Source: a virus. From it: DNA of 64,000 bases. The stretch spans positions 78,626-142,625 of the IMG/VR virus record IMGVR_UViG_3300045988_070909; one strand, given 5' to 3'. The stretch's first letter is position 1; the number at the start of each line of letters is the position of its first letter. Below are positions 4,625 through 64,000 of this stretch, piece after piece. The notes below the pieces were generated by a model, which was not told where the DNA came from, did not search any database, and saw only the letters and a program-made list of their open reading frames with translations. The translations under genes and the position numbers were made by a program.

Positions 4625-6089
4625 GAGAATATTCTTTCTTCAAGATACCATCTTCAAAGACAGTCTCTAAGCATCCCTCTTTTTCCTCCTCGATTGAGAC
4701 CTGGTCGGTAGCAGTATACTTCCCATCCAGACCTTTATAGACAGCAATCAAACCTTTCAAAGAGTTCTTAGTACCATCATCAGTTTTAGGATGTTTGAAG
4801 ATTTCTTTCAATTCGCCATTTACTACGCAAGCAGTAGCCTTAATAGCAAACCCAAGACTATCTCTACTTGCATACTGATAGGAATATGAACCTACTCCCA
4901 GAACGAGATTACAAGCCGCCATATGAGCGTTTTCTAATCTCAAGTAGATTTGCTTTTGACGTTCTAGAGTAATAGAATCTCCATAAAGCAGACCAACCTT
5001 AGTGCTAGGATAACGGTAATCCTTTGAAGTAGTATTCCATCCGAAGATTTTACCAAGCATATAATATGCCCCATAATATTGACCTTCGGACACTTCAACA
5101 TACTCTGCATCGTCGTTAAACGGAGCATAGCAGCAATAATACTTACCTTCTTTCATTCTGGTATTGAAGTGAGGATTAGTTCTCAACCCGCAGATTATAT
5201 CTACTGGGTCTCCACTATCAGGACGGATTACTACTCTACCATCACGAGCCATAATGTCTTTCTTCAGCTTGGGCAAGAAATTTTCAATTACATTCCAGAA
5301 ATCCCAAGTATCAGATACAATAGAAACAAACCCAGAAGGATACAAATCATTAATTAGACGTTTGAAAGTGCCCAGCTCATCTTCCTCCCCTCCAGCACAC
5401 ATTACAGAGTGTTCTGTTGCTGGAACTGTAGCAGCAATCAATTCCTCGTCTGAATTAGCTCCATAATATTCTTCCAAAGCAGCAATAGCTGGAATAGTTT
5501 CACTTCCCACAAAAGAAGTCATATGCGCCATACCAGATATAATTGCGGCTTCCATTCCCGCCATACCTCGCATTGAGAAATCATGACAACAAAAACCAAG
5601 ATTTACATCTGTTGGAAAACCAGTCTTGCAAGCATGACGATGTAGCTCTTTCTTATAAAGCCTAGCTCTAGTAGCAGATGTGCATGGCATCCACAAGGTA
5701 CAGCTGATAATAGTCTCTAAGTAGTTAGTTAACCAAAAGAACTCGGGTAGAGTATTTGTAATGGTCATCATGGGAACCCGAATAGGGCACACAGAACCTT
5801 CAGGAAGAGCCTTTATGCGAATTGGTAGATACCCAAGGTCATATAAAGCTTCAATATGTCTGTACCCAACGGATTCAATACCAACAAAGTTGTTTACTCT
5901 ACGATAGAACATCTCCACAGCTTCCTTCTTTGGTAGATTAAAGAAGTTTTTCTCAAACTGTTTAATGAGATATTCTTTGATTAGGTATTGAATACCAAAT
6001 ACTACTGAACCTTCGGTTGCTTCTGGGAAGTATTTATTACTTCTAGGAGTCCAGTTACTATAAACTTGTTCAGTACCTTCGGGGTACAT
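4587..6089 (-). CDS. nadV: nicotinamide phosphoribosyltransferase (NAMPT/NadV)
   Basis: 500-aa ORF with a NAMPT-like core (PATEHSV ... SDTWD, cf. SDSYD); adjacent to the PRPP synthetase gene. Confidence 0.85.
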   Translation of the reverse strand: MYPEGTEQVYSNWTPRSNKYFPEATEGSVVFGIQYLIKEYLIKQFEKNFFNLPKKEAVEMFYRRVNNFVGIESVGYRHIEALYDLGYLPIRIKALPEGSVCPIRVPMMTITNTLPEFFWLTNYLETIISCTLWMPCTSATRARLYKKELHRHACKTGFPTDVNLGFCCHDFSMRGMAGMEAAIISGMAHMTSFVGSETIPAIAALEEYYGANSDEELIAATVPATEHSVMCAGGEEDELGTFKRLINDLYPSGFVSIVSDTWDFWNVIENFLPKLKKDIMARDGRVVIRPDSGDPVDIICGLRTNPHFNTRMKEGKYYCCYAPFNDDAEYVEVSEGQYYGAYYMLGKIFGWNTTSKDYRYPSTKVGLLYGDSITLERQKQIYLRLENAHMAACNLVLGVGSYSYQYASRDSLGFAIKATACVVNGELKEIFKHPKTDDGTKNSLKGLIAVYKGLDGKYTATDQVSIEEEKEGCLETVFEDGILKKEYSLEEIRQRIDHGL

Positions 6090-8257: not shown

Positions 8258-9274
8258 TCATTGTTCGGAAATTATTACGATACGATTAAATTCATTATCT
8301 CCAAATTCAGTGGTAATTCCACATCCCTTAACAACCAATTTATCCTCTGGAGCACCATAGCTAATCAGAGCCTTCTTCATAGATTCTGCCCTAGCTACAG
8401 CAAGGTTATTATTAAACTCTTCTGGACCTTCTTCCGAAGCATATCCCTCAATCACATAAGTTTTTCCACTATTAGAAATATAGGAAGCTAGTTCTGAGAC
8501 AGCCACATTGGAAGTTTTAGAAATCTCTGAAGAATTTTGAAGGAATTGAATTTTTGGAGTCAAAAGCTCTACTTTAGTAATTTCGATTGTGTCCGTCTTA
8601 ACAATTTCTATTGGTTTACGAGCCATAAGTTCCTCATTCTTGGCTCTCAACTCATTAATAGAAGCGTTTAGGCTTTCAACCTCGGCATCACTATACAACT
8701 TCATAATTGGAAAGTCCCCCTTGCTAGACTTAAAGCGATAGGTAGCACCAATATAGACGTTAAACTCATGATTCAGAGGAGAAGTCTTGGGAAGTAACAT
8801 ATACTCAGGAGTAACATTTAATGCCCATCTATTAGAGATATTAAAGTTACATCTAACGGCTCCACGGGCGGATACATTATTATAGACATCTCCATAAGTA
8901 TGATACCAACCAGCACCAACGATTAGTATAGGCTCAAACAGACGCCTATCTCCGTTATATCCACATATCAGGTTAGTAAGATTGGTAGTAACGTTAGCTG
9001 TCAAATTATGTGAATCAAAGAATGTTTTATTTCCTTGGTTCATTCCAGCCATCATGTCTAACTCCAAGCCAAAGATAGGAGTAATCTCCTTACCAATAGC
9101 AATGTTTACTAGTACATCATTTGGTTCAGCCCAACTTCTTGAGTTGTCCCAAGTTGTGGTACCTACATTACCAGAAACATACCAGTTATCTTTCAAACTT
9201 CCAGTTTCAACAACTTGTGCGCTAGCAAACACGCACATTAAACACAAACAAATAATACTAAAAATTTTCTTCAT
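8258..9274 (-). CDS. OmpA-family outer membrane protein
   Basis: Signal peptide, beta-strand-rich N-terminal half and C-terminal OmpA-like domain (YVIEGYASEEG...NLAVARAESMKKALISYG). Confidence 0.7.
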   Translation of the reverse strand: MKKIFSIICLCLMCVFASAQVVETGSLKDNWYVSGNVGTTTWDNSRSWAEPNDVLVNIAIGKEITPIFGLELDMMAGMNQGNKTFFDSHNLTANVTTNLTNLICGYNGDRRLFEPILIVGAGWYHTYGDVYNNVSARGAVRCNFNISNRWALNVTPEYMLLPKTSPLNHEFNVYIGATYRFKSSKGDFPIMKLYSDAEVESLNASINELRAKNEELMARKPIEIVKTDTIEITKVELLTPKIQFLQNSSEISKTSNVAVSELASYISNSGKTYVIEGYASEEGPEEFNNNLAVARAESMKKALISYGAPEDKLVVKGCGITTEFGDNEFNRIVIISEQ

Positions 9275-61133: not shown

Positions 61134-62970
61134 ATGGCAGCAATCAAATCTATAAAGGTTGGGGAAACCACATACGATTTAAAAGCTACTTACGATGGTG
61201 CTGGAAATGTTATAGATACGACATATGCCAAAGCTAATGCAATTCCAACTAAAACTTCTTAGTTACAGAATGATAGTGGATATTTGACTGAGCATTAGGA
61301 TATTAGTGAATTAGCTACTAAGGGTGAGCTTGAAGGCAAAGTAGATAAGGAGTTAGGAAAGGGACTTTCTGAAGCCAATTATACTGAAACTGAGAAGGAA
61401 AAGTTAAGTACTATAGCTAATAATGCTAATAATTATGTACACCCAACTACTTCTGGAAATAAACATATTCCATCTGGAGGAGCGTCTGGATAGATGCTAG
61501 TTTTCTCAGCAGATGGTACTGCTAAATGGGCAGATTCAAGTTCTAAGCTAGAAGAGCAATTTACAGCACTAAATGAGGCTTGGGAAGAATTGTAGAAGGC
61601 ACAACAAAAGCTTGATAAGTAGGTTACTGAGCTAAATAGTAATATGGATTTATATTCCTATGGAGTAGAATGGGATGTTACAGTAGCATCTCCGGAACTT
61701 ACTAGAATAGGTAATCCTTTGTTGCATAAATCTCTTCCTATTCAGTCAGCGTATAGAGGTTGTGTAGCAAACAATGATGTAGTAAATTACTATCTGTTTC
61801 CAGATGACTGGTCTTATAAAGAAGACGGCGAAACTCCATCTGTCTTAGATGGAACTGATGGAACAGTAAGAGTTAATACTCCTAAATTTTATGGAAAATC
61901 TGGCAGCGATGGAAACAAAAGATGGGTTAGAACTTCTACTGTCAAAATTGATGATTCATGGGTAGAAATTCCTGAACTATTAATAGATGCATACAGAAGT
62001 ACAGTTGATACCACAGTCTCCGCAACTCCAAAAGCTGTATCAGTAGTTAATACTACTACTGCATTTAGAGGTGGAGGAAATAGAGCTAACTACGATGATT
62101 ATCTAACTACAGAATTAGAAACTAAGGATATATTCAGAAGTGATTTAGGAAAGCCTAGAACTAATATTTCTAGAGCTACTATGAGAACATATGCAACAAA
62201 TGCTGGTTCAGAATTGCTATGCTATGAATATTACAAATGGATATTCTACTGGAATTATGTCATTGAATATGCTAATTTTAATTCTTAGGCTGCATATAAT
62301 GCAGAGTTAACTGCAGATGGATATCATCAAGGAGGTTTAGGATCTGGAGTTACAGATTGGGCTAACGCAGCTACAAGTTGGTCAGGGTATAATGCAACAT
62401 ATCCACTTACACCTTGTGGTTACTGCAATGAACTTGGTAACTTCACTGGAGTAAAAGATTTAGTTATTCCAGAATGTACAGCTCAAGATGGCACAAATAC
62501 AGTAGCAACTCATACATTTAAAGTACCTCGCTGGAGAGGATTCGATAATCCGTTTGGAGACATTTGGACTAACCTGGACGGAGTAGTTATAGTGAAAGCA
62601 GCTGCTAATGAGATTAGCACTGTCTATACAACTACTAACATATCGGAATTTACAGACGTAGTTGGAGAGAAAACCGTTGCAGGATACGAAGTAGCATCGG
62701 ATGGTTATATTAAGGCATTTGACTTAGGTGAAACCGCTGAAATAATTCCATCCGCTGTTGGAGGAAGTGCTACTACTTATATTTGCGATTACCATTACTG
62801 CAACGCAAACAGCACAGCGCTTCGCACGCTGCGGGTGGGCGGCGACGCGCTCGCCGTCGGCGTTCTCGATCCACGCAGGCCCTGCGGGTCTCAGCTGTTT
62901 CTTTTCTTTCTTTGGCGTCGACAATGCCTCTTCCACTGTCGGGATCAGGACTCTGAATAGAGTATCTTAA
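61134..62970 (+). CDS. DGR target: tail-fibre/receptor-binding-like protein with C-terminal VR1 (TAG-recoded; apparent frameshift inside the VR)
   Basis: Frame 0 runs from ATG 61134 through track ORFs 61644-62288 and 62592-62960; VR1 lies in the last ~40 codons; the AAY-register continuation ends at TAA 62968-62970. Confidence 0.6.
62838..62943 (+). repeat. DGR variable repeat VR1 (contains a ~19-nt insertion relative to the template repeat)
   Basis: GC-rich island; the 3' ~60 nt align to the template repeat with mismatches almost only at template adenines (one G/A exception). Confidence 0.75.
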
Positions 62971-63057
62971 GATATACAATATAAAAATCGATTTAGATGA
63001 TAAATCGTAGGATATTACTTCTAAAAACCGTTGATTGGCAAAAAAGTACTGCTAGTA

Positions 63058-63144
63058 GGCAGCAACGCGAATAATGGCAGCAATGCAGGTCTCAGCTATT
63101 TCAATTCTAACAATGACGTCAGCAATGCCAATTCCAATGTCGAG
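63058..63144 (+). repeat. DGR template repeat (TR)
   Basis: A-rich non-coding repeat upstream of the RT gene; its in-register translation is Asn-codon rich (GSNANNGSNAGLSYFNSNNDVSNANSNVE). Confidence 0.85.
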
Positions 63145-63287: not shown

Positions 63288-64000
63288 TTGAAACGTGTAG
63301 GATATTTGCACGAGAAAGTATACGCTGAAGATAACATCGAACTAGCTGACGATAAAGCCAGAAGAAATAAGTCTATTAGATGTGGAATCAAGCAGCATGA
63401 TAAGAATAGATTAAAAGAAAATAAGGAATTATCCGATAAGTTAAGGGATTTGATTTATCAACCCTCTGAATATAGTACCTTTATAATATACGAACCTAAA
63501 GAAAGATTAATCTTTAGACTTCCATACTATCCAGATAGAATAACTCACCATGCTATAATGAATATTATGGAGCCTATTTGGACTAGTATATTTATAGACC
63601 AAACATATTCCTCTATACGAAATAGAGGTATTCATAAAGTAGAGTATGATTTGTTTAAGGTGTTATAGAAACATCCAGAAGAAACAAAGTATTGCTTGAA
63701 AATGGATATAAAAAAATTCTATCCTTCTATAACTCACGACATTTTATACGAAATGTTATAGAGAAAGATAAAGGATAAAAAACTATTAAAACTGTTGAAA
63801 GAAATAATTTATTCAGCGAAGGGAGTTCCTATTGGAAATTATCTATCACAATTCTTTGCAAATTTATATCTGACATATTTTGACCACTGGGTAAAAGAGG
63901 AGTTAAAATGTAAGTACTACTTTCGATATGCTGACGATATTGTGATTCTTGGTAATGACAAGAATTATTTGAGAAATGTATTAGTATCTATAAAACTATA
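63288..64000 (+). CDS. DGR-type reverse transcriptase (partial, continues past the window; in-frame TAGs at 63667 and 63757)
   Basis: IGNYLSQFFANLYL (DGR-type [I/V]GxxxSQ motif rather than group-II QGxxxSP) and YADDIVIL catalytic motif; the frame stays open across two TAG codons. Confidence 0.85.

Follow-up and report, generated by a model that had tools for sequence, protein, structure and literature searches.

A Gemmiger-identical tract in the DGR variable region of a Zeta crAss-like phage contig, probably chimeric in origin

In Zeta crAss-like phages, most DGRs lack avd, and for the amber-recoded, DGR-positive members of the group Prevotella/Phocaeicola (and Lachnospira) hosts are predicted (PMC12386605). 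The locus described here lies at the 3' end of a window of 64,000 nt (positions 78,626 to 142,625 of IMG/VR record IMGVR_UViG_3300045988_070909), and its DGR is a standard member of the cassettes known from these phages. The likenesses comprise 26 tRNAs in the window with a CTA suppressor among them (ARAGORN), in-frame TAG codons in both the RT and the target gene, a VR at the C-terminus of a tail protein, VR–TR differences that are specific to adenines, no evident avd between VR and RT, and a second VR elsewhere. The locus differs from those DGRs in that VR1, in this assembly only, contains a frame-shifting tract that does not derive from the TR, whereas the VRs of its relatives are ungapped.

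Phage type and DGR cassette

Sequence matches, rather than a formal phylogeny, place the phage among the Zeta crAss-like Crassvirales, where it would belong with the amber-recoded, DGR-bearing group. The window has PHROG terminase and portal matches, and the tRNA block, the recoding (amber or opal in the group), and relatives of 183–193 kb (the group being characterised by genomes of ~155–190 kb) complete the picture. TerL matches only Crassvirales or phages of Bacteroidota, with 26–28% identity to cr52_1 and similar phages and 44% to uncultured faecal phages.

The DGR occupies the last 3 kb of the window, in the order tail-fibre target with VR1, TR, and RT. Target gene 1 (61134–62984, +) encodes a tail-fibre/tail protein (PHROG phrog_5302 ‘tail protein’, E = 8e-80) of 616 aa as assembled under code-15 translation, the C-terminal ~35 residues lying outside the canonical frame owing to the patch described below. 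The TR (63049–63144, +) is identical to the TR of the closest relatives and is adjoined by the RT gene, of which the window holds the 5' part (63288–64000, +). The RT ORF (Pfam RVT_1, E = 3e-18) begins ~140 nt beyond the TR, has TAG codons in frame, and is truncated by the window end, with only the motifs up to motif 5 inside the window. The ORF list of the window contains no avd-sized ORF between VR and RT. Differences between TR and VR fall almost only at TR adenines (23 adenine versus two non-adenine mismatches in the arms of VR1), and the same holds for VR2 and for ~75 related loci. By these features the DGR appears ordinary and active-looking. VR1 as assembled is not collinear with the TR or in frame at the 3' end of the target (+19 nt net, +1 frameshift), whereas VR2 in the window and VR1 of all relatives but one (L016, with a 1-nt deletion) are.

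The target gene and the RT are intact only when TAG is read as Gln, and open-reading-frame content under code 15 is nearly double that under code 11 (window ORF totals). The amber-suppressor tRNA with anticodon CTA (44477–44549, +; ARAGORN) accounts for the reading of TAG as Gln in the late genes, the target and the RT among them. A second tRNA, with anticodon TTA (41376–41446, −), was called by ARAGORN and is a potential ochre suppressor; both VR1 frames nevertheless terminate at TAA.

A second DGR target, VR2 (34628–34737, −), was located by GC-island scan, alignment, and translation within the gene for a 188-aa protein (34510–35073, −), and serves as an internal control for VR1. It aligns with the TR without gaps, and inside the VR proper (GGTGGGC onward) all differences are at TR adenines. 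VR2 lies ~28 kb from the cassette, inside this small protein and not at its extreme C-terminus. Cross-talk between VR1 and VR2 was considered and rejected: most variable positions differ, and only ‘GGGAT’ at the 3' edge coincides.

Net insertion and frameshift in VR1

VR1 as assembled (62829–62943, +), delimited by TR offset analysis and by alignment with 32 relatives, comprises a left arm, an aberrant core, and a right arm. The left arm (62829–62851) aligns with TR 63049–63071 at an offset of +220, with 16 matches, six mismatches at TR adenines, and one non-adenine mismatch; the right arm (62878–62943) aligns with TR 63079–63144 at an offset of +201, with 48 matches, 17 adenine mismatches, and one non-adenine mismatch. 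The two offsets differ by a net insertion of 19 nt in VR1, and the 3' half lies in the +1 frame, which confirms the claim of the sequence-only reading that VR1 carries ~19 extra nt that shift the frame. In the core (62852–62877, 26 nt) neither TR register fits, with 9–13 non-adenine mismatches as against one in each arm. Counted strictly, 26 foreign nt stand in place of 7 VR nt, for a net gain of 19; with the ambiguous overlaps included, 26–36 nt stand in place of 7–17 nt. The full patch tract is 36 nt long (62845–62880, +). In the alignment with the closest IMG/VR relative (L004; 99.1% identity over 6.36 kb), gaps total exactly 19 nt and all of them are inside VR1; therefore, the insertion is not an alignment accident or ambiguity.

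The left arm keeps to the tail-fibre frame (...LRVGGDALAVGV), and the right arm is TR-like in the +1 frame only (AGLSCFFSFFGVDNASSTVGIRTLNRVS and stop, with TAA at 62968–62970). The canonical C-terminal coding segment of VR1 (62881–62970, +; ..PAGLSCFFSFFGVDNASSTVGIRTLNRVS and stop) is now in that +1 frame, within the ORF 62758–62970. The nominal-frame ‘stop’ at 62958–62960 is TAG, a sense codon (Gln) in this phage; thus, frame 0 runs on as ...DQDSEQSILRYTI to the TAA at 62982–62984.

Two details of the sequence-only reading hold in part. The extra 19 nt are present, although the boundaries given for them (62865–62883) are arbitrary, the aberrant tract being 62852–62877, or 62845–62880 with the ambiguous overlaps. 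A few non-adenine differences had also been reported upstream; three of the four fall inside the foreign tract, which explains them, and the fourth, T/G at 62833, is a polymorphism common to many relatives. This last difference from the TR lies at the 5' edge of VR1 (CTGCTGG versus CTGCGGG, Leu versus Arg), occurs in about one third of the relatives, and is probably outside the tract that is rewritten by homing.

A protein-guided scan of IMG/VR yielded 80 homologous loci, from phages of ~180–190 kb. VR1 lacks the 19 nt in all 32 of the closest loci, where it aligns ungapped and in frame to ...VGFRTLNRVS (VG(F)RTLNRVS) and the same TAA, and in six more assemblies from ENA, NCBI, and JGI, found via an identical upstream protein, the target ORF ends at the canonical TAA. 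Every close relative with a complete VR (38/38) is in frame and without the insertion, as is L180 (Logan ERR11777730), the only contig with the window-private RT substitution (Pro at 63462), in which VR1 is canonical. These sequences uphold the earlier preference for an artefact at a hypervariable locus over a pseudogenised target. Across the ~75 loci with a complete VR/TR pair, there are 0–4 non-adenine mismatches each, and all pairs are ungapped but those of L016 and L012. L016 has a 1-nt deletion in VR1 (~5178–5286) that frameshifts the target, and L012 (~5185–5284 plus the TR) carries a surplus C in the TR (GCCC versus GCC), so that any VR rewritten from it would be frameshifted. Neither IMG/VR nor the metagenome-contig collection contains the junction sequence, a search for other carriers among INPHARED phages gave no match, and exact-product look-ups of three patch-spanning ORFs gave none either. 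Nothing relevant was found in the literature on DGR template switching, VR insertions, or VR frameshifts.

Absence from relatives bears directly on the idea that the insertion is functional and that programmed +1 ribosomal frameshifting, or some other recoding, restores the canonical C-terminus. The phage already has non-standard decoding (TAG=Gln, the CTA suppressor tRNA, and the TTA-anticodon tRNA), which lends the idea some plausibility. However, programmed frameshifting is recognised by a shift site and a frame arrangement that are conserved among homologues, and because the insertion is found in no relative there is no conserved shift site here; moreover, with frame 0 read as far as the place where the +1 shift would be needed, the foreign tract would still put unrelated residues, LAVGVLDPRRP, into the ligand-binding loop. 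We accord this explanation a negligible probability, and regard it as effectively excluded.

The rest of this VR1 allele is also unusual, in that residues invariant in the relatives are broken (GLG to GLS, GVG to GVD, and GFR to GIR). Two TR AGC (Ser) codons, at window positions 62891–62893 and 62920–62922, are GGC (Gly) in the VR1 of every relative (L001–L029, L092–L097, and L180) and in VR2 of the window. VR1 of the window alone has AGC and GAC at those two Gly columns, plus ATC for the invariant TTC of the terminal GFR motif (62944). The conservation implies that Gly at the two adenine-derived columns is likely to be under strong selection. Ser, Asp, and Ile at the invariant Gly, Gly, and Phe positions would fit a real molecule that is fresh and unselected, which argues for an insertion made in vivo and against a chimera.

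Foreign tract, donor gene, and host

The patch (62845–62880) is identical at 36 of 36 nt to the chromosome of Gemmiger formicilis ATCC 27749 (NZ_FUYF01000012.1), with the plus strand of the window antisense to a U32 peptidase gene. The 27-mer at 62853–62879 has one exact match only in the 185,579 species genomes searched, which is again G. formicilis ATCC 27749, and beyond the 36-nt identity both flanks are unrelated. In the 596-Gb collection, with GC-rich composition allowed for, the chance expectation is ≤7e-4 for the 27-mer and ≤1e-8 for the 36-mer. The donor is an ordinary bacterial gene (Peptidase_U32, E = 4e-93; U32_C, E = 8e-23), and the tract lies in its C-terminal domain. An identity beyond chance to such a gene establishes the Gemmiger U32 gene as the source of the patch.

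Microhomologies that fit both the VR pattern and Gemmiger lie at each junction: 7 nt on the left (62845–62851, ACGCGCT) and 3 nt on the right (62878–62880, GGC). Donor site and VR are alike outside the patch too, with 11/15 identities directly upstream (left) and, downstream, a GCAGGCGTCAGCT motif like the GCNGGTCTCNGCT of the VR. Such homeology beyond the patch is expected for an annealing- or alignment-driven join. The longest k-mer common to real VRs and the Gemmiger site is 8–11 nt. A Gemmiger 35-mer was found in 82 contigs of human-gut metagenomes; its surroundings there are high in GC and Gemmiger-like in every case and phage-like in none, and IMG/VR lacks the 35-mer. Thus, donor DNA is abundant in the samples where the phage lives and would be plentiful in the tube or read set.

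This identity overturns the view of the sequence-only reading that VR1 is a chimera of VR variants, since the inserted tract is derived from neither TR nor VR and is an exact 36-nt copy of a chromosomal gene of G. formicilis. In its fuller form, the explanation holds that the extra bases are either a mosaic of co-existing VR variants or a TR-templated duplication by RT slippage, as a 19-nt tandem copy of TR 63066–63084. The TR does have an internal GGCAGCAAY repeat, and the tract has a weak likeness to TR 63066–63084 (eight matches, five adenine mismatches, and five non-adenine mismatches over the first 18 nt). However, the internal repeat has a period of 18 nt rather than 19, both registers of the TR give 9–13 non-adenine mismatches, real VR variants never change the fixed T/G positions at which this tract differs, and the bacterial sequence, to which the tract is identical, is found independently in the 82 metagenome contigs. 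The proposed tandem duplication had rested on T>C changes common to ‘copy 1’ and ‘copy 2’, and these are Gemmiger bases. Mosaicism and slippage together are accordingly very improbable, and a chimera of VR variants is effectively excluded.

G. formicilis, which is abundant in the human gut, is a member of the Bacillota (Firmicute; Oscillospiraceae) and has 61% GC at this locus, compared with 35.7% GC for the phage. A Shine–Dalgarno-like motif is present at three of 68 gene starts in the window, as in Bacteroidota and unlike Clostridia. The window also has a gene (8258–9274, −) for an OmpA-family protein that combines an outer-membrane beta-barrel domain with a Bacteroidota-style signal peptide; the product may be host-envelope-modifying or superinfection-related. 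The TerL relatives, the OmpA protein, the scarcity of Shine–Dalgarno motifs, the GC gap, and the Zeta crAss-like type all point in one direction: judged from these genomic traits, the host is almost certainly one of the Bacteroidota and not Gemmiger. Among the hosts predicted for such phages, Lachnospira is less plausible than Prevotella/Phocaeicola. With a host other than Gemmiger, Gemmiger DNA is not expected in the infected cell.

Origin of the join

The VR1 insertion is probably a cross-organism chimera, made in the library or in the assembly at a hypervariable locus. We infer an in vitro or in silico origin from the evidence as a whole, and the exact route between these two is likewise inferred rather than pinned down. 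By one route, polymerase template switching in library or whole-genome amplification would produce a chimeric molecule; by another, an assembler or gap-closer would thread the left and right VR flanks through homeologous, high-coverage bacterial sequence. The chimeric path could become the contig because the true VR variants would each be too rare or diverse to form a continuous path. The real VR1 of the phage would then be in frame, and the target gene would not be a pseudogene.

The locus is fragile in assembly. Nine of the 80 related IMG/VR contigs end within the ~450-nt VR1–TR segment (L006, L010, L015, L029, L032, L039, L042, L065, and L072), and L180 starts at the VR; the DGR is thus a strong hotspot of assembly breaks among these phages. 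Elsewhere the contig is clean, with no other indel in the 6.36 kb compared with L004 and with a canonical VR2. General low assembly quality, as from noisy long reads, was rejected on the absence of other indels and on the count of private SNPs (six, compared with 1–14 in relatives); the apparent G>A bias of these SNPs involves too few sites and is equalled by L005.

In three respects the locus resembles the chimeric joins and contig breaks known from hypervariable or repeated metagenome loci: the donor is an abundant co-resident, the donor site is homeologous to the GC-rich VR, and the locus breaks many assemblies. It differs from typical chimeric contigs, in which there is one genome switch at a long common repeat, whereas here 26–36 nt of foreign sequence are joined through tiny overlaps and the phage sequence resumes at once. 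A patch of this length with such short overlaps is not explained by a simple k-mer mis-join. The k-mers common to VR and donor reach only 8–11 nt, and the microhomologies measure 7 and 3 nt, which is too short for a plain de Bruijn mis-join at k ≥ 21. This route was rejected as unlikely; the join would have required chimeric reads across the junctions, a gap-closing step, or polishing. A double switch from phage to bacterium to phage within 36 nt, with the phage flanks nearly contiguous, is also unusual for random in vitro chimerism.

It resembles a templated, microhomology-mediated insertion. In an in vivo account, aberrant DGR homing, or repair or replication restart at VR1, would have involved a microhomology-guided switch onto Gemmiger nucleic acid, the copying of ~30 nt, and a switch back, giving a templated filler insertion; the result would be a real, non-functional VR1 allele that came to dominate in this sample by chance. 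Short templated insertions made by polymerase or RT switching are known, for example the host-RNA-derived inserts in viral genes and MMBIR/FoSTeS filler insertions, and the group II intron RTs, relatives of the DGR RTs, switch templates readily. Like those insertions, the patch is short and templated, with microhomology at both junctions (7 and 3 nt), a small target deletion (7–17 nt), and both phage flanks kept, which is the architecture of microhomology-mediated template switching and can arise in vivo too. In addition, de Bruijn assemblers could not have invented the junction k-mers, given the 8–11 nt in common.

The known insertions, however, use nucleic acid of the infected cell, whereas the donor here is a bacterium of another phylum and the copy was made without adenine mutagenesis. 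For an insertion in vivo, a phage with Bacteroidota-host features would have to share a cell with Gemmiger DNA or RNA, the 27-mer being found in no other species genome, and the insertion has left no trace in any other assembly. If the DGR RT had made the patch, it would have copied all three core adenines faithfully, when ~75% of TR adenines are mutated (P ~ 0.25^3 = 0.016), and a cDNA of the U32 mRNA would have the opposite orientation, since the plus strand of the window is antisense to that gene. The faithful adenines and the wrong orientation argue against the DGR RT as maker of the patch, and in the reading favoured here the frameshifting insertion was not made by the DGR. Aberrant homing, which the sequence-only reading had offered as an alternative, is disfavoured on these grounds and because the donor is not the host. 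Overall, we consider a genuine insertion in vivo unlikely, including the version in which a polymerase or RT, in the course of mutagenic homing or of break repair at VR1, switched onto nucleic acid from Gemmiger and returned. A true in vivo capture would make this the first DGR target or variable region to import foreign sequence, and would mean that this crAss-like phage or its host cell meets Gemmiger nucleic acid, with unexpected host-range or DNA-uptake biology.

Under the cross-organism chimera that we favour, the VR1 ‘insertion’ adds no new feature to the biology but is an error of a type that had gone unremarked at loci like this one. The apparent pseudogenisation of the target is not to be taken at face value, as the phage DGR and its target look canonical. 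After adenine mutagenesis, DGR VRs are GC-rich islands in otherwise AT-rich phage genomes; they are contig-break hotspots and can also pick up brief stretches of unrelated DNA that is abundant in the community. Such loci could be misclassified when VRs of metagenome-assembled genomes are surveyed and scored as ‘degenerate’, ‘frameshifted’, or ‘non-adenine-mutated’, and screening aberrant VR tracts against bacterial genomes would catch such patches.

Some assemblies place the ~185-kb phage in bigger contigs, namely L093 (378 kb), L097 (372 kb), and L095 (484 kb; NCBI GCA_041331915.1). At ~2x genome length or more, contigs of 370–484 kb suggest concatemers, host integration, or mis-binning with the host genome, and they could reveal the host.
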